Notes: generated from the sequence alone by a model not told the origin. DNA of 63,957 nt, filler included, from Rhabdomonas costata (GCA_019059605.1; 55 parts of 55 records of this genome joined end to end with filler, not necessarily neighbours in it), one strand, 5' to 3'; shown: positions 1 to 53,697, counted from the first letter of the whole stretch. A program made the numbers and translations.

Positions 1-1066
1 TTTTGTTTTGGGTGCGGTTCGACTTCAACGACAGCCTGAGCGACACCCGCGAAATTTAACCAACGGGGGTAGTCACCGCACCTTCCTGATTCACTCACAC
101 CCACACACACTCTGTACCTGTTGCAGATAGAGAAAGGCAACGGTGATTCTGATGTGTCTTGTTTTGCGCTCTGCCTGAACCCGAATAAAGGTGGTCAGTC
201 CTACTGGTGCACTACTACTCCTAGCACAGTCCTGCTGGTGCACTACTGTCCACTGCTGCGGCGCCTTCACTTTTCTCTCATCCTCCAGATTTTGTCGCAC
301 AACTGCAACGTCATGCAATGATCCACCACAGTCTCCTTCATTTGCATTTGCAACACTTTGCTGGGTGCCGTTACACTACTTTACTGTTGGTTGGACGGTG
401 TGAAAGGATACTGTTTACATGTTGCGATCCGCCGAAAACCAATATTTTCACGAAATGCACAACTGGCTCAAGTTGGAGCAAGTTGGACGCGTTGGGTCTC
501 TACTTTTATCTGCTATTGCAAAAAAAAACAAAAAAAAGGGCGCTACTACCGCACTAGTCAACATCCAACAGTCCGACCGCGTGTCCGCTACATCTTGGTA
601 GAAGCGTCCTGTTCCTGAGCGCTTTCATTCCTATGTTGGGTGAGGAATAAGGGTCCGGACATTGTGCGTGATCGTCTTTTTCAAATGTGCCATAGGACCC
701 ATACCTAATTGAAATAAAGTAAATAGTTCGCCGGGGGTTTGGAAGGAAGGAAATGGGGCATTTTTGTACCTGAAAAGGACTTCCTTGGCGCCGGCGCAAT
801 TTCACATACAAACGGGCAAGCTGACAAACAAACGAAACACGACGCTGAATTGGGATAAGACGGAGGGACAAAGCGGGGGGCACAGGGAAGGAAGCGGTCG
901 AAGGCGGAGGGTCGGGCATAAAAAAAGGGGGCGCGGCGCCGGCAAAAAAGGGGGAGGCCACAAGTCTCGCGCCAAGGCACGGGCAGCGAGAAAACCAAAG
1001 CCCACCACGGCAAGGCACCGGGAGGGCACCACACACAGAAGCAAGAAAGACGATGCAGAAAAACAC

Positions 1067-1166
1067 NNNNNNNNNNNNNNNNNNNNNNNNNNNNNNNNNN
1101 NNNNNNNNNNTTAATTAATTAANNNNNNNNNNNNNNNNNNNNNNNNNNNNNNNNNNNNNNNNNNNN
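1067..1166. other. Artificial contig-joining linker (first of 54 identical copies)
   Basis: 44 N + TTAATTAATTAA (stop codons in all six frames) + 44 N recurs about every 1165 nt. The sequences on either side of each linker are unrelated. Confidence 0.99.
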
Positions 1167-2110
1167 TGCGGAGAGCAAAGAAAGGAAAAAGCAAGGCAGC
1201 CATTTTTTTTGGAGGGTGCATTTGACTACAGAGAGAACAACCTACAATGTTTCATTTTGAACTCGTGCCGTGACCGAGCCGTCTCGGATAACGGAAGAGA
1301 GTCAACGAGCCAATAAGAGGCACACGAACCTTGGCTGACGAGACTTGGACTTCGAGGATTCTTCTGAAAGAACAGGCGGATGAACGTGAGCGATACCCAA
1401 TTATTTAATTGTAATGAAAAGAACATGCATAAAACCACACCGTCAAAGATGTCGTCAGTGACAACAAACGCCACAGCCGCCTAAAATTCAGTCAAATGTG
1501 CCTTAGAGACCCCCCTCCCTGAGTCACGAGTGTTCGCTTTCGATGATGCTGGAACACGCCGCAAAATGCTTCTCACGTTCATTTCATTCGCTTAGTTAGA
1601 GGGGATAAAAACGTCCTCTTTCGGGCAGGTGTGTACTGAATGATCAGTCAAATAATCAATCAAATGAGATCAAACTTTGTTCCATCCACCTAAAGGTGCA
1701 CTAAAAGATCTGAAAGAACACTACAAGATCACACAAATAGGAATAGGCAAGGCCGCAGTTGGCCAAGGCGTCGGTTCACAGCTCTGTTCACAGGTAAGTT
1801 CACGAATGAATTCAAACAACAATATAAGGCACATGAGTACTCTATCAAAGATACATTACTTGGAGACTTCATTGCCCCCCCCCCCAGGGTATATCGACCA
1901 ATATCATGCAACAACGCGAGTGCGATCCCAATATCTAATCCATCGGAGGTGCCGGTCCTCGTCCTGACTTCCTGTGAGGCTTGAAAAATCCATCATATGA
2001 AGGAGATAAAACAACTTCCCGGGTAAACAAGACGTAACATCATTAGAAGGAGAGCAAATGGTTTTTCGTGTGCGTGTGTGGGGGGGTGCCTTGAGTGTGG
2101 CAATATCGAT

Positions 2111-2226
2111 GGGGCCAACTGTAACAATGACAAAGTGTCCTGCGGCGAAGGCGGGGCACACGCGCACACCTCAGTGACGGAGGTGGAGAGGCGGCCGGAC
2201 ACTTTGTCATTGTTACAGTTGGCCCC
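2111..2226. repeat. Perfect 30-bp inverted repeat with 56-nt spacer
   Basis: GGGGCCAACTGTAACAATGACAAAGTGTCC (2111-2140) is the exact reverse complement of 2197-2226. It ends 6 nt from the contig end. Confidence 0.95.
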
Positions 2227-5200
2227 AAAACCNNNNNNNNNNNNNNNNNNNNNNNNNNNNNNNNNNNNNNNNNNNNTTAATTAATTAANNNNNNNNNNNN
2301 NNNNNNNNNNNNNNNNNNNNNNNNNNNNNNNNGTGTTGGGTGTGGTTGGGGGGTGTGGGTCGTCCCTTGCGGTCGTTGGGTTGGGAAGGGGAGCGTAGGA
2401 GCTTTTTGTTGGTTTCAACCGTTAACCTTCCCATGCCTCCTTTTCCGTCCTATGCCTGTGTAGGTCTCGTGGCCTTGTGTTACCGCTTTGCGTTTTAGAA
2501 ACGTAATCATGGGCATGCCCGCACAGACGCTAGCCGCTAGACGTGCTAGTTTGCGTTTTGTGCATTTTGGACACAACTGTCGACCACCAATGTTCAGCAT
2601 TAAGAAAACAACAGGCCCGTTCAATACTAGCGCGATCTTGGGTAACGGAAAAGACGTGTTTTAAGTACTCACTGATTATCCATCACCCCTACCTCTCACA
2701 TAACAGAGGCAATGGGAGGGAGGGGGCATCATTTGCATTCCCCGCATGAGATTCAAACCACAGAAACACAGAAACACTCGTCCCACCACAACGTGCAGAG
2801 CCTAAACGGCGGCAAACACTCGGACTCGCGCCCCCCCCCTCCGCCCGCCTCCATCCCAAATTGTGCGTGCCCAAACATAAGGGCGACCACAGTATCGCTG
2901 CTCGCCCCTATGCTCAAAGAGAGAGAATCCAAAAAGCACCCCTTCAGCGCCAAAGTGGCGCAGTCTCAGCCGTCCCGGGGGAAGGCACCCACCACAGGCT
3001 GCGCCTATCCTCACACAAAGGACAACACTAACCCCCCAACAAAGGTAGCACGCGCGGGTACAGCTCGGGCACTCGGAGGAGAGCCCGTATGTATGCGAGC
3101 TCTGACGTCATTCTTTCTCTTCCCGTGAGCAAAAAGCGCGAAGCGGATGAAGAGAAGCAGCTTGCAAAAACAACGCACCACACCCGGCACACAAAACCAC
3201 AAGAACAAAAGCAACTATACAGCAGAGAAAGCGTCTCTCTGTGTGTGGGGAGGAGGGGGGGGGGTCCCGGAGAGAGGCACCCATGCGTGGGCACTTCATA
3301 CCCTCCCCCCGGCTCCCGGGCGACAACGGCAACCACACATACAAATACACACACAGTTGAGCTCTACAAAGAGTCTTTCTGAACTTGTCCCACCCACACN
3401 NNNNNNNNNNNNNNNNNNNNNNNNNNNNNNNNNNNNNNNNNNNTTAATTAATTAANNNNNNNNNNNNNNNNNNNNNNNNNNNNNNNNNNNNNNNNNNNNG
3501 TGGTTGGGTGTGGATTTTGTGGAGACGTACGGTTGGTAGGGATGTCGCAGAAGTGGGGCGGGGGTGCCACTCGGGAGTGGGGTGGCTCTGGTCGCACCGC
3601 GTCTGGCATTCGCGTCCAATAAAAAATCAATCCCTTGGGGCGGGATTACACTCAGGAAAACAAATGTAACGTCCTCACGGGCAAGCGTAAGCATTCGTTT
3701 GGGGTTTTTATTTCATGGACAGCACCATCCAAGGCAGCCAGCGAAACAGCGAGCAAGACACAGGAAGTTTCGGGAGCTACAGGACATCCTGAGGGGAAAG
3801 AGACAAAGAGAAAGGACAATACGGTCACTTGGCGCGGGTCTTCCGGCTCACGGTGGGGGGATCGAGGTTCGGCCTCACACCTAAGGGGGAGGTGCAGGGC
3901 AACATGCCTAAAACGGTGTAGGAGATGCGGTAGTCGCAGCCGAAGTTGCCCACCATAACCCGCGCCGTGTTGATGCCACAGCGGAACCTGTGTCCCGAAC
4001 CCAATGGAGTCGGAAGACGGGAGACTGGGGTTGGAAGGGAGCTACATCGAAGTCAAATTGCTGAGACAAGGAGCGGGTGCGTACCGACAGTACACCCCAA
4101 CAGCATACGTCCCTCACACACACGCGCGGGTGCCGCATCCGCCTGACTTCTCTGGCAGTCCCCAATGCCGAAAATGTAAGAGTCTCAGTTGAAGCGGTGG
4201 AAGGAAGTGAAGGCTGGAGTTGAGTTGAAGGCGAAGATTGAGCACGCGGAGCCCGACGGCTGGGTACGACTCACATGGCGAGAATGCCCGGCTTTGGGTT
4301 GTCCGCGGCCAGTGCCAGGGTGCCGCAACCAGAAAGCACCTGTTTATCGCACAGTTAAAGCAGCAGACAACGCCCAGACCAATACGGTCGGGAAAAACGG
4401 GAGCTACCGGTTGTTTTGCTTCACCCACGGCTGTAGCTCGAGTAGAATATTGCGGCCGGTGAGCTCTCGTAGTCGGCATTTGGAAGCCATTGGCAATGGC
4501 ACGGAATGCCGCATGAGAGTTTTACCATCCGCTACTGCATTTCCGCTCAATATCCACCACCACAANNNNNNNNNNNNNNNNNNNNNNNNNNNNNNNNNNN
4601 NNNNNNNNNTTAATTAATTAANNNNNNNNNNNNNNNNNNNNNNNNNNNNNNNNNNNNNNNNNNNNGTTTTGTTGTGCAACGATCGGTCGCAGGGCCTCAT
4701 GCCTGCGGTCTAATTTGCATTTGGACGGCGCAATATTGGAAACGAGTTGTACAAAATCTCATCAGAAGTGGTCGTCGTGCCAGGAATAGTGCCATGGCTA
4801 AATACATGTTTTGGCATTAATCGTTATCAGTCACCTCTTACACATGATCTATATTCCCATTTTTGTGATGCCTAAAGCACCACTGTTCTCTGTCGTGTGT
4901 GTTTTTCTCTGCATTTTTCTGAACATTTCACCTCTATACGCCCGTTTTCTCCAGGGATTCAGAAAATTCCAAACGATGTCAGGAAAGCCCCTCCTGCCAA
5001 CGTTTCCTGGGCTGACCAAAAGCAGCGAATACCCCTTCATCCCCCAGGTTTGCAGTCTATTTCGTGCAACGCTTTCTCGCAAGCCGATTGTTGGAAAACG
5101 GCTGCTCTATGTTAAGGGGCGTCTGGTTGCCCTTTTTATTGAAACGGTGATAGAGCATCAGTGTTTAGGAATGAATTGTGGTTACATGCCTACCCTGCAC

Positions 5201-5417
5201 TCTGAGAACATGATCACGTCTGCCTGCATCTATGCTGCGTAAATTTCTTTGTTGGGCTGAAGGAAACTGCTGATCGTTGGTCTAACGATGGGGTGCTCGG
5301 GAAGCTGCAAAAAGATGCTTTCACCTGAAGCGATATCATGTGAAATACCCAAGGGAGGAGCACCTTTCCGAAGAACGGGAGCGGGTCGTCGGTCTATCGT
5401 GGCCTCCTGTTGTGCAG

Positions 5418-5653
5418 TTGGGTATGCCTGGCGCACGCTGCGTCCCACCCCGCCGTTCTTGCCTGCCCGGATGAGCACTTGCATGGTGGTCTTCCACGGG
5501 AAGCTGATGGTGCTTGGAGGCCTGAGCTCCTCGTGGTCCATTTCCTTGAACGATGTGTGGTTGAGCCCAGATGCGTTGACCTGGACGGAGGTCCGCGCCT
5601 GGCCGAGGTTCAGCCCTCGCTACGCTGCGGGATGTGCGGTGCATGGGGAGCAG
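5418..5653 (+). CDS. Internal exon of a kelch-like beta-propeller repeat protein
   Basis: Bounded by TGCAG| and |GTTTGT. Translation ARMSTCMVVFHGKLMVLGG...NDVWLSPDALTWTEV...FSPRYAAGCAVHGEQ fits the kelch pattern (R..h.hhhhGG...DVW...W). Confidence 0.8.
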
Positions 5654-5918
5654 GTTTGTCACTTCCCTCTTTTCCACCTGGTGACGTTTGGGTCTGGTTC
5701 TGTTTGAAAAAGAGGGAAGTGACAAACTAAANNNNNNNNNNNNNNNNNNNNNNNNNNNNNNNNNNNNNNNNNNNNTTAATTAATTAANNNNNNNNNNNNN
5801 NNNNNNNNNNNNNNNNNNNNNNNNNNNNNNNTGTGTTAGGTGTGATTGGGTTGTTTTTTGATATATTAGATAAATCTAGTATAATTTTTTTGTATTATCT
5901 GTATCATTTATAAAAGTT

Positions 5919-6897
5919 AAACTTTTAACAAACAAATCATTTGTTGATTCAAGTTTAACTTTTATAAATGATACAGATAATACAAAAAAAATTATACTAG
6001 ATTTATCTAATATATCAAAAAATAATACAAGAACTATATCATTCCCTGATGCATCATGTATTTTATTAGGTTTGGACTGTGTCCAAACCGTAATAAATAA
6101 AACAATTGATGATCCATCAAATACAATTACATGTGACAAATTAAGAACAATAACAGGTTCAGTATTAATTGCCGGAGCAGCTGCACCAGCAATTAATCAA
6201 GTATTAATAGCAACAAGTCCAACAAGTGCATCATGGCAAACAATCAGTCATTTGAATCTATCAGATATTGGTACAAATACACATTCACAAATTGATAGTC
6301 ATATATCTACACAAAATATACATACACCGAACCCATTAACTACAAAAGGAGATATTTGGGTCTATGATGGCACAATCAATAATCGTTTACCAATTGGTAA
6401 CGATACTTATATTTTAATGGCAGATAGTACATCTTCAAATGGTATGAGATGGGTATCAACAAATTCATCATTTGTAGCTTCCGCTAATATATTATTACCA
6501 CCAACAACGTCTATTTCAATAGGTTCATCAGCTGCACCAACCATAAATCAAGTATTAATCGCAACAAGTTCGACAAGTGCATCATGGCAAACAATAGATC
6601 ATATAAATCTTTTAAATATTGGAACAAATACACATGCTCAAATTGATACTCATATATCATCAAGTTCCAATGTTCATGGAGTTACTGGTTCAGTTGTTGG
6701 TACGTCTGATACTCAACTTTTAACAAATAAATCATTATCAGATTCAACTTCTTATTTTATTAATGTAACAGACTCAACAAAGAAGGTAATTTTTAATCTT
6801 GCAGGTTTAACAACGGCTACTACTCGTATACTAACAATTCCGGATGCATCTTTGACTTTAGTAGGTCTGGACACAGTCCAGACTTTAACAAACAAAC
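5919..6897 (+). CDS. Partial virus-like virion fibre/structural repeat protein (AT-rich, intronless, foreign to the host genome)
   Basis: The frame is open from about 5919 (KLLTNKSFVDSS...) to the contig end. It has two copies of LLTNKS..DS...FIN.TD.TKK.I..L...TR...PDAS..L.GLD.VQT..NK, two of AAP.INQVLIATS.TSASWQTI.H.NL..IGTNTH.QID.HIS and one LTTKGDIWVYDG..NRLPIG.D..IL.ADST..GMRW module. Codons end strongly in A/T, unlike the other contigs. Confidence 0.7.
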
Positions 6898-9312
6898 NNN
6901 NNNNNNNNNNNNNNNNNNNNNNNNNNNNNNNNNNNNNNNNNTTAATTAATTAANNNNNNNNNNNNNNNNNNNNNNNNNNNNNNNNNNNNNNNNNNNNGTT
7001 TTTTGGGAATGCAGTGGGTTAGGTGACGAGATGAAGGTGCATGTGCCCCAGCGTTAAGGATGTCTTGGGTATGAGTTCGGTTTTCTGGCAGCTTCCGATG
7101 ATGTTACCAGCCTTTATCCTCGGTTTTAGTTGAGGTTAGTCCTCCCGCGACAACCAACCGCGCCGTGTGCCATCTCGAAGGGAAGACCACAAGCATGATC
7201 TGCCGGGTCTCTGAGTCCCAGCATCTGCGTCCCTTTAAGCCTAGGCCCGGGAGTCCAAGTTGACTCTCCCTTGGTTTTGTCGACTCTCAAAGGTTCCTTT
7301 TCGTTTTTTGTTTGACGTTCGTGTAGCTCGCCGCTTATCCCGGGGACCGCTTTGCGTGGACTTTGCAACTTTGCGTGTTTCCATGCTGCTGCTCCATTTG
7401 CCAACCTCATTGCACCCTCCCCAACTTGCACAGATCCTGGTAGACCACGCCGTCCACTCCCAGATCAGCATCAGCGTGCAGTAGCTGCACCGGTGCTACC
7501 CTTGGCAGAAGGAAGGCGGAAAAGGTCTACGAGATGATTTCCGAGTCGCAGCAGGCGGACGATGAGTGGATGTACCAACTGAAGGAGAAAAAGGGGCTGG
7601 GGGCTAGTAACCTAGATGCCCACCCTCGATTAAGATAGTCTGAATCTTCATGGAAGGTGAGTCAAGTCCCAACCATCGAGAGAGGTGTGACACCAAGGTC
7701 ATATCTGTTAACCCACACAAGCACACACGTGGAAGATTCTTCTGGGAGAGTCCTCACAACATTCGTGAATGAAAGCCGATGGTAATCCAACTCTTTGAAT
7801 CCTATGAGAAAGGAAGCATGCAAAAAAAAACACGCCCCCAATACAAAACACCCAACCATAAAGCATAAAGCAGAGCCACTCGAAAGCCGAGCTCTGTCGG
7901 GAGAACGGGAGGGGACGAGAAGGGAGTCCTTGTTCCAGGCACACCTGTGGGGGAGTACGGGTCTCGCACGTAGCCCCTGCGAAACATTATGATATGCCAC
8001 AAAGAAAGCAGTCCCTGCAGCAGTGAAAAAAGAAACTTCTCCAAGTAAACCAACACNNNNNNNNNNNNNNNNNNNNNNNNNNNNNNNNNNNNNNNNNNNN
8101 TTAATTAATTAANNNNNNNNNNNNNNNNNNNNNNNNNNNNNNNNNNNNNNNNNNNNGTGTGGGGGGGAATAAGAAGTTAGCGAAGAGTGCTCTCCGATAA
8201 CTTCTTATTCCCCCTCGAGGCGGACGTTTCGGCGCATAACACCGGCTTGCCCGGTAGCATTGTTTCTGAAGTGTGTGATTGTTTTCGAGTTTCCGCACAC
8301 GCAAGCGCACGAGAAGAAAATAGAAGGCGACTTCTTCAGCGACTTGGGGCCATGAATTATTTCTGAAATACCAATCCATTTTTGTTTCACCCTCATAACG
8401 ATCATTTCAGCATGGCAGTTGTGAACATGAAACTGCCATTAAAGCTAAAAGCATCGCTGTCGTTATCAACGCAGGGAGAAGGCCCATATGACGAGGCGAG
8501 CAGAGTCAAAGTAGGTTAGGGAGATAGCATCTCTGGGCCTCCCTCTGTGGCATTATTATGTGATAAGCATAAAATTCTTAAAATCATTTCCATTCCAGTT
8601 TTTTTGACGGGAACCCCTCAGGAGCTTCGGAGCCCTGCTGGAGGTCCGGAGTTTTCCCCGATGGCGAAGGTCTTCGGCGGTTGCAGTGGGTCGACGGCTT
8701 CGTCACTCGGCGCTGCGAGAACCCCCTGTTCTGCTCCATCCCCGCAGACGTGTCCATGGGTTTGCCATGCGTCCCTTTTTCGATGCGGCAGGTGGACATA
8801 AATACTTGCCCTTCCTAAGCACGAGGTATAACACTTCTCGGGTCCCTCACCAGTTTTGATTGATTTCAGACTTCTTCCACCTTTGACCCAAACCGCACAA
8901 GAGCCAGTTGAGGAGGTATATGTTTTTGAAGACCTTGGTAGTGTTGCTCTTGTAGTTTTGTGGCTGTGGTTGAAGTCTGTACAAGCATAGTTGAAGATCA
9001 CTAGGAAGGCCCTTCTTCTTGTTTTTTTTTTGGGGGGGGGATGTCAATGCAGATAATCAGTATTTGTGATCTAATCGCAAGGCATTTACGCAAAAGGTAT
9101 TCTCCTCATGCCCTCCTCATGTTCATAATGTTTGTGTCACGCCTTGCCAGAACGTTATTTGAAGTCTGCTCTTCCGCTTTAATTCGGTGGTGTTTGTGTC
9201 GCAGTAATCGCGNNNNNNNNNNNNNNNNNNNNNNNNNNNNNNNNNNNNNNNNNNNNTTAATTAATTAANNNNNNNNNNNNNNNNNNNNNNNNNNNNNNNN
9301 NNNNNNNNNNNN

Positions 9313-10198
9313 GGGGGTGTGGGGGAGCTGGGAGCGGGTCCAGACTGGGGAGCCGATGTTCGGGCCTCGCTCCTCGCACGGCGTGGTGGTGTTCAGGGAG
9401 AGGCTGTGGGTGGTGTCCGGGTGCTACTTGAAGGGCTTTACATACCGCGACGACGTATGTGGGGAGCCCGCCAGGCGGGAAGCAGGGGAGGGGAGAAGCG
9501 GGTCTGTAGTTGGAATGGTTTTGTGTTTGGCCAGGGTTCGCTGCTCTTGGCGCTTCTCCACATAATGGTGCTGGGCCCTTCTTTGTTCGAAATATAAAGA
9601 AAGGTCCTCATTAGTTTGTAATGGTCATCACAGTAACCTTCACAGTAACCTTCACTGGTGATGACAACTTTTCCTGTGAATTTTTTCCTGTAAATAGAGT
9701 CCTCAAGGACCCCAGTCGACCGTTGCGGAGGTGCCGTGGACTCGTCTGCCCATTCGTCAGCTAGGTAACCCGTGAGCCCATGGTCGGTCGTCCATCGAAA
9801 CGAAGGTTCGCCATCTGTCTTGTGTGTGTGCATGTGCTGGGAACCAGGTGTGGAGTAGTGCGGACGGGAAGACCTGGGTGATGGAGACCCGCAAGCTCCC
9901 CTTTCCGGGGCGCTCGGACTCCCTATTAGTGGAATTCCAGGGGCAGCTCGTGCTGATGGGGGGACGCAACTACTACGGCCCCCTGGACGAGGCTTGGCGG
10001 TCCCGGACCTCCGGGAAGTGGACCCGGATGCCCCCTGTCCCGGGCCCGATCACGGAGTTCGCCGGGGCCGTGCTAGGGAAAAAGCTGTTCCTCTCCGGAG
10101 GGGTGTACATGGGCCCCCCCGGCACCAACGCGGGGGCCAGCAGCGTGGTGTATACCCTAGGTCCGCAGGGAGGATACAGAGAGAACCCGTGCGGTTGA
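9313..10198 (+). CDS. Kelch-like repeat protein, two exons (<9313-9454 and 9848-about 10198)
   Basis: Removing intron 9455-9847 (GTATGT...AACCAG) joins YRDD|VWSSADGKTW in frame. Three kelch-like blades are visible (PRSSHGVVVFRERLWVVSG; GRSDSLLVEFQGQLVLMGG; GAVLGKKLFLSGG). The 3' end is uncertain. Confidence 0.85.
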
Positions 10199-11183
10199 GG
10201 GGATAGGGGTCCCAAACGGGTCGTGAATATTATTCTTGATGCCACCTGAAAAGTCAGGGGGAAAATGTTACCAACATCACAATTTTGGACTTGCAGGGGG
10301 TATATGGCATTTTCTTTCCAGCGGCGGAAGTTATCGTTGGTGCTTCTTCCAACGTAGCGTTACTCATTCCCACAACAANNNNNNNNNNNNNNNNNNNNNN
10401 NNNNNNNNNNNNNNNNNNNNNNTTAATTAATTAANNNNNNNNNNNNNNNNNNNNNNNNNNNNNNNNNNNNNNNNNNNNTCAGAAACAAGTGACTCGAGAA
10501 AACCGAAATCGTGTCGGAGAAGCTAAATTTGCCCGATGGTGAAACCCTATGGTCTTTTTAAAAATGACATCTCGCAACACGTTGCCCGGGCTTCAAAGTG
10601 CTAAAGGCTTCACTGAGGTCTTTCCCGAATTGACAGACCCGCCCACTTCAAGCGAGATCCAGAGCACTCGTCTCTGGAAACTTGACGGATCTCAGAATAT
10701 AGCTATTGGAAACGTGTTCCAGATCTTGTTGCAATGCATCCACATGATGACTTCAAATCAAGCTGTTGCTTGAAAAACAAAGAGCAGAATGGGAATTTTA
10801 GTCAGATTGCAAACCAGGTTTAACGTCTGAAATGGGTGGAGCTACGACTTCCCAGAAGAGCGTTTTGGCCGATTAAATTCGGTGTGCAATTGACTCCATT
10901 ATACAATGCTCTGCGCTTTCAGTCTCTGTTCTGCAGGATGTTAGTTCCGCTTTCACTTACTTTTCGATCAACATGTACAGCGTTGTAACATCCTGACGTG
11001 CTCGAGCTGTGTACCGCCTTCCCGTGTTTCGTGTCTCCTCCAACTCTGACACTGTTTCAGAGTGGAACTTTCCTTCCTTCATCCTCAAGTTAATCGGTGG
11101 AGCTTCCGGTCACCGAGCAGCCTGTCTTGGACTGATGCCTCTCTTGGCAGCCTCAATTTTTCGGCGGTGTGTCTTGTCGGCAG

Positions 11184-11346
11184 GTGGGGTCGCCGGGCTA
11201 TGGTGCGTCCTCTCCGCGACAGCGGCCAAGGCCCGGGCAAAGGAAGAAATCCCGAACCCGCCGCACCCCAAGGGGGTCCTCGCGGTGGACTCGAATAAGC
11301 CCTTTGCGGAGGGACGGTTCCGCTACGCATTTCGAGGAAAGCTGAC
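11184..11346 (+). CDS. Exon of an alpha-kinase (eEF2K/MHCK family), N-lobe
   Basis: KPFAEGRFRYAFRGKL matches the alpha-kinase PFA.G..R.A...motif. Flanked by GGCAG| and |GTATGG. Confidence 0.7.
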
Positions 11347-12272
11347 GTATGGGTCGCCCTGTTGTTGCCAATTGCGCTGCGGTGACTTACCTAAGGAACC
11401 GCCAATTGGAATCCCTTTCCGTGGGACGGGAAAGGGCGGGAATGGGAAGAGGGTGGAAAAGGAAGCGGCCACTTTGCTGGCACCCCTTTGAAATATCTGA
11501 CCCCTTGTTTGTCAAGGAGCCCACCGGTGGTGGTGTTAGGTTTNNNNNNNNNNNNNNNNNNNNNNNNNNNNNNNNNNNNNNNNNNNNTTAATTAATTAAN
11601 NNNNNNNNNNNNNNNNNNNNNNNNNNNNNNNNNNNNNNNNNNNTTGGAGCGCCATGCCGCTGAGGTGGCGCTATGGGTGGGGGGTGGGCTTGCACACCGA
11701 CGCATGAAATAGAGTTGGCTTCAAGCAGGTTGCTTGGTTTCCTGGGGTTTGATCCTGAGTGAAAGCGGAAGTTTTCTTGATAAAGATAATTTGATATTTG
11801 TGGACACCCGGTTGTTTCCTAGCTAGTGGAGGGTGACCACCTTGAACCAGAGAACGTGCCGGAGTACCTGAGGACGGCCATGTGCACACATGCGGCTTGT
11901 TTGATGCGTCCTCGGTTCGTTGTGGCAGTGGTGTGTGTCTTTGCACGTTAGCTTCGGCACGGAGATGCGCTGCGGGCGCACACTGCGGACTGGGGCCGTG
12001 TCCTCTGCGAAGGCCGTAGCCTGGAGCTGGTGTGTCGTCACGAGGACGTCGTGGTGCAGGAGGGCTGCTGGGCTTCCACAAAAATGGTGACACCCCCACA
12101 CCACCCCCGAACCCCTTTCTTCCTTGTGCTTCGACCGGAATGCCGGCCTGTTATTCTGTTAATCTAATATGTTGCCGCCATGACCGCTGCATACCAAAAC
12201 ATGAACTGCGATTACACAAAACAAAACAGGCCGGGGATTCCGGGGAGGTTTCTCGCCTATCAAAAACATCAG

Positions 12273-12454
12273 GTGGAGTGCGTGCTTCGTGCCCACCCCG
12301 CGGTGTCGGTCTGTGCGGTGGCTCGGCGCCAGCCCACTTCGGAGGGCGGCCCAGGTGGAGAGCTGTGTGGCTTTGTGGAGCTGCGCAGCGGAGGCGAGTC
12401 CTTGACCGGGGCCCAGTTCCGCGAGTACCTCCAGCAGCACAAGCTACCCCAGTG
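12273..12454 (+). CDS. Exon of an AMP-binding (acyl-CoA synthetase/NRPS-type adenylation) enzyme, C-terminal subdomain
   Basis: VECVLRAHPAVSVCAV...GELCGFVEL...FREYLQQHKLPQW matches EIE..L..HP.V..AAV...L.AFV...L...L...LP.Y. Acceptor CATCAG|. Confidence 0.8.
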
Positions 12455-15862: not shown

Positions 15863-18632
15863 GTGTGCAAGTGGTGCCAGCGGCGGGACCACCGTCAGCC
15901 CCTGCCCACCACCACAGGTGTTCCTCTGACGGGCGAGCGAGTCCTCATCAATGCAGCACATTCCCGTCATATCCGTATCCATTACCATTACCTAAACACT
16001 ACACTCGAAAATCTCGGCACCCCAGGATGCCCTAAAACGTGAAATTCCGTCCGATAATTTGCTGGGTCTGTCCAGAGAATGAGCCTCCGAGCTTAACGGA
16101 GGGCAGTGGCGTTGGTGGTACGCCGGCTGATTGGCCGCCCAGGGTCATGGCCGAGGACGCTGGCGGTGATGCTCGTCACATTTCTGTTCGTGTAAAACAC
16201 CACANNNNNNNNNNNNNNNNNNNNNNNNNNNNNNNNNNNNNNNNNNNNTTAATTAATTAANNNNNNNNNNNNNNNNNNNNNNNNNNNNNNNNNNNNNNNN
16301 NNNNTTAACGTTTCCACTGCTTTTCTAGCCAAATTATCAACACATATTTTCGCCACCCTCGTCTTGGCACTTATCCACTACTAGATTACAAGCTAAGTTT
16401 TTCGACCAACAAGTATCCACTTTCGCTTTACTCACAACTCCGGCACTAAATGCTTTTCTCTTTCTCTCCTTTTTTCACTACTATCTTTTTCACTCTAGGT
16501 ATCAAACATCAAAAAGAATCCCAACGGATTGATAAAACCCAACCACAAGACGTCAAACTTCAAACTTACACCGCACTACCGTGATTATTTTGTCATAATA
16601 AGCTGATAAATAACTAAGCGTTAGCAGACTCCCGACTTGTTGTGGGGCACCAACGAGGCAATAGATGACAATTACTCAGACCTGATGACACAAATGGTTT
16701 CTCCTCTACAACTCTCCAGCTCAAATGATTTAGTCTATCACAAAATGGCTGCTTGAATGCATCTTCTACTTTACTTACGTTTTGCGGCATCGCCGATATG
16801 ATTGCGAGATCCATCAACTCGTCAAAAAGCCTGACTAATGTAGGCTGCATCTACATTATGTTTTCCTTTAATGACACTTCCTGAGTCTCTGAGTATGTGA
16901 AAAACCTCTGCAGACGCCGTCAGGTTTCGCATCAAAACCTCCACTCTCTCCACCTTCTTCTAGTAACTAATGAAGGCAACATGCGGCACAAGCGGTTCAA
17001 TCAACTTCACCTGCACAAGCTTTGTGTTTGTTGCAAACCTTGTTTCCTTCAGTACCGAACAATAGATTTTGTCTGAAAGTTCTTTTAAGTAGACCAGCTG
17101 TCATGTGCCTGCTTTTTACAGTTGCTGAGCTTAACGTCTTTCATATAATCTGAGTTCACTGACTTTGCGGATGAAACTGTTCAATGTCAAAGAGTTTCCT
17201 CGACTCACCCAGTTTTTGCTGACTTGCCACTCGCTATGTGTTCACTTTACTGATGTTTTTAGTGCTCATCTTCTTAGAAAGTGTCTTCTTCGTCGCCATC
17301 TTCTATCGCAGACGTGATCACCACAAAACATTTTCCATTGTATCTCTGACCTACAGCCTCAACAAAACCNNNNNNNNNNNNNNNNNNNNNNNNNNNNNNN
17401 NNNNNNNNNNNNNTTAATTAATTAANNNNNNNNNNNNNNNNNNNNNNNNNNNNNNNNNNNNNNNNNNNNGTGGGGTGTTTCGGTAGAAATAGGTCTTAAT
17501 TTTGCACTCGTCGTGGTTCCTGATGTTTCAGGGCGTTATGACTTGGAGGTTTGCAACGCGGGCGAGATCCACTGAATTAGTTTGGGCCACTTGTTGTTGC
17601 CCGACAGCTTTTTTTTCCTGGTTGATACTCGTTTCAGGTTTGCATTGAATTGAATTACTTCTTGAAAGTGTGAGCCGGGAAATGTGTGCAAGTCATCTTT
17701 GTGCATTTGTAGCACAAGCCATATCGATGACTTTGGAGATGTGACGCAATAATGCAATGTAAGGAATATTACATTCACTCCAAGCTTTCTCATTTCGTTT
17801 CCGTTGTCTCAGAGCTCCACTTTCTTCGTCTTCTTGTTTTTTGTTTGTAAATTTCTTTATTATTCTTTTTTTGCTTCACTCCGCTGCGCTTCTCTTTCAC
17901 TTTTTCACTTCTTTCCGTTTGGTATTCCCCTCGGCATCGTTTTGTCGCGAGCAGCGGCGTGTGCCCTACAGAATGGTATCTCCACTGTTCTCAACTCACA
18001 CCTCATGTCTTCTTATAGTTGGTACAATCTCCCTTGAAACCGTTTTCCTGGAGGAGTCATTTGGCCAGTCCACAACCTAACCCGTTAATGTTCACGTGTT
18101 GCACGAAACAAACCGCGTGGTGGGAAGCCGCAAAGCCCACCACCCCCCACTCACCCAACTTTTCGGGGAACAGCTGGGGGATGCCTTTCTCATTTTCTCA
18201 TTGGGGCAGCCCCAAACGTGAAGAGGGGCATTCGAGCGTGTTTTCCCCCTTTTGACGCCGTTGTTTTGCTCTCGGTAAGGCCCAGGGCGAATCTCGGTTC
18301 AAACACCGCGGCTGTGATGTACACATTTCTGCTCGCGATATTTCTTTTTTTTTTTTGCAGAATCGGTCCCGGACGCCAACGCTGAAGCCGGCAGCGAGCA
18401 GGTTGTCCGGTTTTGTCGTGCCTGTTTTTCTGTGTGAGTGAGGCATTATGCAATCAGGCGGAATACAGTGCTTGCGTCGGTTTGCAGAATGCCTCACTCA
18501 CACAGAAAAACAAACACCCAAACACACCCCCCCNNNNNNNNNNNNNNNNNNNNNNNNNNNNNNNNNNNNNNNNNNNNTTAATTAATTAANNNNNNNNNNN
18601 NNNNNNNNNNNNNNNNNNNNNNNNNNNNNNNN

Positions 18633-34701: not shown

Positions 34702-34844
34702 TTGGTTCACAGCTGTCAGTTAACATTGTCAGCTGTCAGCTGTCAGTTAACATTGGTGTTGATTGTGCGCCAGCCGCTGGTCAGTTGCTCGTTGGTTAGC
34801 TGACAGCTGACAGCTGACAATGTTAACTGACAGCTGTGAACCAA
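34702..34844. repeat. About 50-bp inverted repeat built of GTCAGCT-type heptamers
   Basis: 34702-34751 is the reverse complement of 34795-34844 with one mismatch, ending at the contig end. Confidence 0.92.
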
Positions 34845-46629: not shown

Positions 46630-46791
46630 GAGGGATCAATGTGTTTCTTCGCTCTCGGTTGTTCAACGGATGCATTCATAGCACCCGAAGAGGGTGCTAT
46701 GAATGCATCCGTTGAACAACCGAGAGGGATCAATGTGTTTCTTCGCTCTCGGTTGTTCAACGGATGCATTCATAGCACCCTCTTCGGGTGC
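46630..46791. repeat. Inverted triplication (direct-inverted-direct) around a small hairpin
   Basis: 46630-46686 equals 46724-46780, and 46692-46726 is the reverse complement of 46652-46686. The loops GAAGA (46687-46691) and TCTTC (46781-46785) are mutual reverse complements. Confidence 0.95.
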
Positions 46792-53579: not shown

Positions 53580-53697
53580 GTGGGTCGACATGCGGTAAAC
53601 AGACTGGGTGAACGCAGAGAGGGTTGGAGCTCTGCGGTTCCACAGAGCTCCAACCCTCTCTGCGTTCACCCAGTCTGCTTACCGCATGTCGACCCAC
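53580..53697. repeat. 55-bp-arm hairpin with 8-nt loop
   Basis: 53580-53634 is the reverse complement of 53643-53697 with one mismatch, starting at the contig start. Confidence 0.95.

Follow-up and report, generated by a model that had tools for sequence, protein, structure and literature searches.

Organization of the contig

The window (the whole stretch of DNA analyzed here, 63,957 bases) consists of 55 separate contigs, each of about 1,065 bp, with N/TTAATTAATTAA spacers between them. The contig at positions 5832-6897 carries the following features, in window coordinates:

5832..5851, + strand: amplification-primer remnant, G/T-rich, outside the foldback and the gene
~5854..5925, − strand: foldback arm, an inverted copy of ~5950-6022; an amplification chimera, not a gene
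5880..6896, + strand: open frame P0001, 339 codons with neither start nor stop, the credible gene part running from ~5922-5938 onward
5922..6101, + strand: module A1, LTNKS...NTKK...PDAS...VQT.INK, 60 aa, its first few codons overlapping the foldback axis
6102..6308, + strand: linker ..SNTITCDKLR.. and module B1, AP.INQVLIATS...WQTI.H.NL..IGTNTH.QID.HIS
6309..6461, + strand: module C, TTKGDIWVYDG....RLPIG.....L.ADSTSS.GMRW
6462..6659, + strand: module B2, a direct repeat of B1
6660..6716, + strand: connector SSSNVHGVTGSVVGTSDTQ, 19 residues, also found between B and A units in relatives
6717..6896, + strand: module A2, cut by the contig end

Frame 1 of this contig has three stops, all in the first 48 nt, after which 339 codons without a stop run up to the contig end; each of the other five frames has 13-50 stops. 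An open frame of this length occurs in 0 of 2000 shuffles of the contig, and GC at codon positions 1, 2 and 3 of the P0001 frame is 35, 47 and 12%, respectively. Having no start and no stop, P0001 comes from the interior of a far longer gene. The description of the gene as intronless in an earlier, sequence-only reading of this DNA thus holds for the approximately 960 nt that are present but does not extend beyond them, since the frame is a fragment.

The GC content of the contig, 30.3%, is the minimum among the 55, as had been judged by eye in that reading. The remaining 54 contigs range from 41 to 60%, at a level of about 52%, which makes the contig a clear compositional outlier. A second low-GC contig was sought among these 54 and none falls below 41%. 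Rfam and tRNA scans of the window gave no matches. The neighboring host-like contig carries a Kelch-repeat exon (5288-5707, + strand; Kelch_1, E 3e-4), the only Pfam match among five host-like window ORFs. Long open frames are missing from most of the other window contigs, which is expected for intron-rich or non-coding eukaryotic DNA.

Amplification artefacts at the contig ends

The 5' end of the contig (the first ~106 nt) is non-genic: it opens with a primer remnant, and the rest of it is a foldback duplicate of the ~90 nt that come after. The stretch ~5854-5925 is the reverse complement of ~5950-6022 but for the length of one A/T run, and the turn of the foldback sits at a small natural palindrome. 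Because this stretch is an inverted copy, the frame's residues 1 to ~19 do not belong to the gene, and because the 5' end is an artefact the sequence is credible as gene only from ~5922-5938 onward. The outermost 18-mer (5832-5849) resembles the starts of three other contigs with at most 3 mismatches (4 matches vs. 0.07 expected). These primer-like starts resemble the universal primer of whole-genome amplification (WGA) as quoted in PMC10781638, in which the primer of degenerate-oligonucleotide WGA consists of 18 constant nt and, after them, ten G/T positions. At 69 of the 110 contig ends, at least 10 of the terminal 12 bases are G or T, compared to 5% of internal 12-mers, and the 3' end of the contig, in A2, reads as a G/T-rich priming site when the complementary strand is taken. 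The contig is thus a single WGA product and the assembly carries untrimmed amplification primers. Near-copies of the universal primer open several window contigs, with end examples at 2333, 19800 and 55910.

Seven of the 55 window contigs (this one included, at 5854-6022) hold comparable inverted repeats within ~200 nt of an end. The six further repeats, which are imperfect (80-100% identity), lie at 2110-2227, 8163-8214, 18423-18512, 34702-34844, 46649-46791 and 53580-53697, and are probably foldback chimeras of amplification as well. That the palindrome at the contig end might be the hairpin telomere of a virus was considered and dropped, as the palindrome's axis lies within a coding repeat unit, its outer end is primer-like, and six other window contigs have similar terminal inverted repeats.

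Module architecture of the encoded protein

The A-B-C-B-A order proposed in the sequence-only reading is borne out by the module coordinates and by the repeat alignments. A1 and A2 are identical at 33 of 60 residues and B1 and B2 at 40 of 69, alignment scores that were each reached by 0 of 2000 shuffles; at the DNA level, the B repeat is a 168-nt direct repeat with 79% identity. A comparison of relatives suggests that module C and the first half of B are versions of a single unit.

Two of the shorter elements recur outside of the contig. The connector SSSNVHGVTGSVVGTSDTQ is common to P0004, P0122 (the top match, described below) and proteins of the loci L003, L005 and L007. The linker motif N.(I/V/L)T(C/S/A)(D/N).(L/F/I)(R/H) is present in 20 of 244 related proteins, each with an AT-rich make-up, and in 5 of 142 loci (L003, L004, L006 and the phage contigs L007 and L008); it is missing from L005. 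Three IMG/VR contigs (49% GC) that matched the back-translated linker pattern were dismissed as chance, because what they match is minus-strand sequence outside the listed ORFs.

Protein family and predicted trimer

P0001 matches the PHROG family phrog_692 (virion structural protein) in two stretches with an E of 1e-12 and 48.8 bits. The match is partial, placing residues 259-339 on positions 226-304 of the 440-position profile, and covers the connector and A unit only. The Pfam-A search with P0001 gave only two chance-level matches (E 0.05 and 0.07), both below the cut-off and neither to a fiber family. In the protein collection, relatives at E ≤ 0.001 number 376 of near length and 300 longer. 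The top match, P0122, is a protein of 1455 aa that is 47% identical over 96% of the query (E 2e-187), collinear with P0001 over 333 residues with the exception of module C, and encoded on a contig of 490,192 bp, a length compatible with a giant virus, a huge phage or a bacterium.

The N/I/S/T-rich fiber type is shared by all whole-length relatives, and those of full length (1,100-1,450 aa) alternate the same modules. P0122 and P0123 are laid out with N-terminal short repeats, alternating A and linker-B units, and a distinct C-terminal domain of ~130 aa. From this architecture it follows that the repeats encoded here belong to the shaft of a protein that is probably longer than 1,000 aa.

Modeling the protein as a trimer, which the sequence-only reading had suggested, passed its controls: the three-copy model of residues 20-339 scores 0.84, against 0.00 for the best of 3 controls, on a scale calibrated on two copies, with the alignment of relatives unused and with resemblance to solved fibers as a possible source of a raised score. 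The mark set for this score is reached by 21 of 30 proteins solved as one-chain pairs and by 0 of 23 solved single chains. Contact agreement between runs is at least 93% and partner pLDDT at least 76, with predicted contacts along residues 28-334. As a prediction, the model supports an intertwined trimeric shaft for the P0001 protein.

Taken with the phrog_692 match and the hundreds of relatives, the three-copy model upholds the view of the contig as a foreign, AT-rich piece coding for a modular virus-like fiber, and we hold with high confidence that it is a fragment of a viral fiber gene foreign to the host.

Relatives at loci resembling eukaryotic viruses

When the 142 fetched loci are ordered by the bit score of their strongest tblastn segment against P0001, the first four places go to L003, L004, L005 and L006, with 150, 132, 117 and 102 bits, respectively, a ranking in which AT-rich relatives may score high partly via shared composition. 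All four are of 27-30% GC. Their fibers, at 40-49% identity, are relatives and do not come from the same virus as the contig.

L005 is a 12.3-kb part (1-12343) of a 20.5-kb contig with 29.8% GC, on which dense one-directional genes are separated by short AT-rich spacers. It encodes two fiber proteins (1688 aa and 930+ aa), collagen-repeat proteins, one of them rich in Gly, Ser, Lys and Cys, and small membrane-protein ORFs. Its WD40/PROPPIN-like protein is 46% identical to that of Fadolivirus algeromassiliense at full coverage (E 4e-93) and 42% identical to that of Klosneuvirus KNV1 (E 6e-82), whereas cellular PROPPINs reach only E 1e-30, and on these similarities we take L005 to be a Klosneuvirus-like giant virus. 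The motif AAAATTGA, which we take to be the Mimiviridae early-promoter motif, lies 50-70 nt upstream of two L005 ORFs, a count to be read against an estimate by which two copies per strand per 12 kb are near chance. The L005 fiber keeps the order C, B, connector, A (40% identity over 208 aligned columns); its A units are 44-58% identical to A1 of P0001 and its KGD...LPIG...LKW unit corresponds to module C. It differs from P0001 in having no linker motif and in its added collagen repeats.

L003 and L004 represent one virus from two samples, in which two fiber paralogues stand head-to-head with an ORF of 290 aa:

L004 639-1511 and L003 2-712, − strand: 290-aa ORF (penton-like), adjoining the fiber genes

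Among cluster representatives, 111 relatives of this ORF were found (E ≤ 0.001); it belongs to no Pfam or PHROG family, and sequence and profile searches of the PDB gave nothing useful. Its structure was predicted from 66 aligned relatives (65 of the 111 and the ORF itself) with a pLDDT of 93, compared to 30 from the single sequence. The model finds structural matches in the mavirus penton (6g42, E 7.5e-12), the penton bases of adenoviruses and the penton of PBCV-1. Among predicted viral structures, Tetraselmis viridis virus S1 ranks first (E 3e-16), followed by Mimivirus-family, virophage, adomavirus and adintovirus proteins. The predicted penton fold places L003 and L004 in a virus of the double-jelly-roll-capsid realm whose fiber genes lie beside that of the vertex protein. 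Downstream of the putative penton gene in L004 lies an ORF of 196+ aa (2-589, − strand) with a weak match to PF08398 (E 0.08, below the cut-off). If real, this phospholipase-A2-like motif would fit a membrane-active virion protein.

The fibers of L003 and L004 are 43-49% identical to P0001 over 146-223 residues, carry the linker motif and share its low GC (27-30%); the L003 proteins are set apart from P0001 by N- and C-terminal domains of their own. The N-terminal motif of L006 is common to the L003 fibers. No terminase, portal, HK97-fold capsid or tail genes were found in the readable parts of L003, L004 and L005.

Beyond these loci, the only match named as a eukaryotic-virus protein is gp313 of Acanthamoeba castellanii medusavirus, a hypothetical protein (E 5e-13) with repeated C-like and B-like units (KGD...G...L.AD....G.KW...H..L.N.G.NTHAQ.DAF.). 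It differs from P0001 in that it is GC-rich in make-up, lacks A units and reaches 27% identity over 50% of the query. The closest proteins to P0001 are metagenome proteins from uncultivated sources: P0122, P0123 (1265 aa) and the fragments P0002 and P0003 share its linker motif and N/I/S/T-rich make-up, and P0122 reproduces the order A-linker-B-connector-A at 47% identity over the collinear residues, with no module C at the corresponding place. Neither P0002 nor P0122 had a relative in IMG/VR, and P0003 led to two weak loci there.

Phage-type fibers in eukaryotic viruses have been described before. A phage-tail-fiber-like protein, Ltf, was detected in particles of the polinton-like virus (PLV) PgVV-14T according to the account in bioRxiv 10.1101/2022.07.28.501842, and the relevant section of PMC12220804 speaks of 'bacteriophage-like fiber proteins' encoded by PLVs of cryptophytes and other protists. 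By description only, Ltf is like P0001 a long repeat protein of phage-fiber type in a eukaryotic virus; the T4 gp36-like repeats reported for it in that account belong to a Pfam family that P0001 does not match.

Relatives in phages and cells

Tailed phages also carry these modules. L007 (36% GC) is a tailed phage, as shown by genes matching a major head protein (E 9e-36) and tail proteins (best E 5e-58), and its protein of 1778 aa resembles P0001 in the linker and B1 (63% over 78 aa), in B2 and the connector (59% over 85 aa) and in an A unit (43% over 108 aa), with the linker motif present. The modules that the sequence-only reading had attributed to both phage and giant-virus proteins are seen in L007, in medusavirus gp313 and in the Klosneuvirus-like L005. 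We rate it as less probable that the contig is part of a tail-fiber gene whose source was a tailed phage or prophage, its host being an AT-rich bacterium present as food, symbiont or contaminant. Such a source would account for the phrog_692 match, for the tblastn matches in 10 phage records (none of which covers 80% or more of the query) and for the linker and B unit of L007, the linker motif being missing from the giant-virus-like L005. Of the 61 IMG/VR records with partial relatives, 50 were screened for hallmark genes; a large terminase was found in 6 of the 50, and in 4 of the 8 records with a completeness of 90% or more. The NCLDV major capsid was found in 0 of the 50, a weak zero since the capsid model rang in no control genome. 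A language-model look-up returned clusters labeled Uroviricota (score 0.91, a lead only), and Mtd_N (PF18454) appears in the precomputed Pfam column of relatives. Against a phage source, the tailed-phage fibers (phrog_692, L007) match P0001 module by module and are not collinear with it, while P0122 is collinear over 333 residues; the four top-scoring loci have 27-30% GC vs. 36-39% for L007 and L008; and the readable loci among these four are eukaryotic-virus-like, with a Klosneuvirus-like WD40 protein and a predicted penton of mavirus/PLV type.

Relatives in cells are more fragmentary. A Saccharibacteria MAG (L002, 9176-10438, + strand) encodes a protein of 420 aa with a TTKGDIWVYDG...LKW unit that is 60% identical to module C over 42 aa. 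The gene lies amid cellular-looking genes and adjoins pilin-like repeat ORFs; it may represent a fiber module carried by a CPR bacterium or the remains of a prophage. Further relatives are labeled WOR-1, Brocadiales and Methanofastidiosum, some of them on contigs of 74 kb to 1.7 Mb. These matches are what would be expected if the contig came from a non-viral surface-protein gene of an AT-rich bacterium or archaeon (e.g., CPR), which we nevertheless consider improbable, as they span one module or 14-30% of the query and could be prophage genes, while the whole-length relatives are without exception of the fiber type and the top-scoring readable loci are viral.

Across these groups, the fiber modules have plainly been exchanged among phages, giant viruses, and cells or their prophages.

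Source of the fragment

We put the chance that the fragment comes from a eukaryotic virus (a giant virus or a PLV/virophage) at about even, which makes it our preferred source. This assignment rests on the nearest loci that match the contig in composition and have readable context. It is weakened by the L007 match and by the possible composition bias in the ranking. The suggestion in the sequence-only reading of a virus possibly belonging to the Nucleocytoviricota is in keeping with this insofar as the nearest readable loci are eukaryote-virus-like, and is tempered by a tailed phage, L007, that is almost as close.

An integrated endogenous giant-virus or PLV element in the genome of the sequenced eukaryote is very improbable: the fragment and the host-like contigs come from one primer-tagged amplified library, and PLVs as well as giant-virus fragments integrate in protist genomes according to PMC12220804, but the contig has no host-like flank, is AT-rich coding sequence throughout (primer-derived bases excepted) with a GC3 of 12% and no drift toward the ~52% GC of the other contigs, and the 54 other window contigs are all at 41% GC or above.

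With a eukaryotic virus as the source, the contig would have been copied by WGA from the middle of a long virion-fiber gene of an AT-rich virus that was present together with the sequenced eukaryote. The encoded protein would form the shaft part of a homotrimeric fiber in which A units alternate with B/C units, and a separate C-terminal head, encoded off this contig, would bind the receptor. The likeliest such virus would have a double-jelly-roll capsid, either as a Klosneuvirus-like giant virus or as a PLV/virophage with fibers at its penton vertices. We infer that its DNA was free or contaminating and not integrated.

Virus-host association and significance

No host junction was found on the contig, which holds the fiber frame only and no NCLDV/PLV or phage hallmark genes. 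The search for hallmark genes that the sequence-only reading had recommended likewise came up empty across the window, with no second low-GC contig to bin. The fragment is tied to the sequenced eukaryote only by amplification in the same library, and low-input amplified samples readily acquire DNA of co-occurring microbes, viruses or reagents. The new virus-host link of the sequence-only reading, with the virus infecting, ingested by or integrated in this cell, thus finds no support here. We regard as rather unlikely the stronger proposal that a Klosneuvirus-like giant virus or PLV/virophage, its vertex-fiber modules exchanged with tailed phages, infected or was carried by the amplified cell or cells. 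If true, it would be the first virus-host pairing for an uncultivated AT-rich lineage.

For the assembly itself, the non-host DNA, primer remnants and foldback chimeras flagged here merit removal before annotation. Should more of its low-GC contigs carry NCLDV/PLV hallmarks, this could indicate a virus associated with the eukaryote. Since phage-type fibers in PLVs and giant viruses are already described, the fragment by itself adds little more than a short stretch of a familiar gene type; its relatives, in turn, provide a clear example of fiber modules that are common to tailed phages, a Klosneuvirus-like virus and a small virus with a predicted penton.
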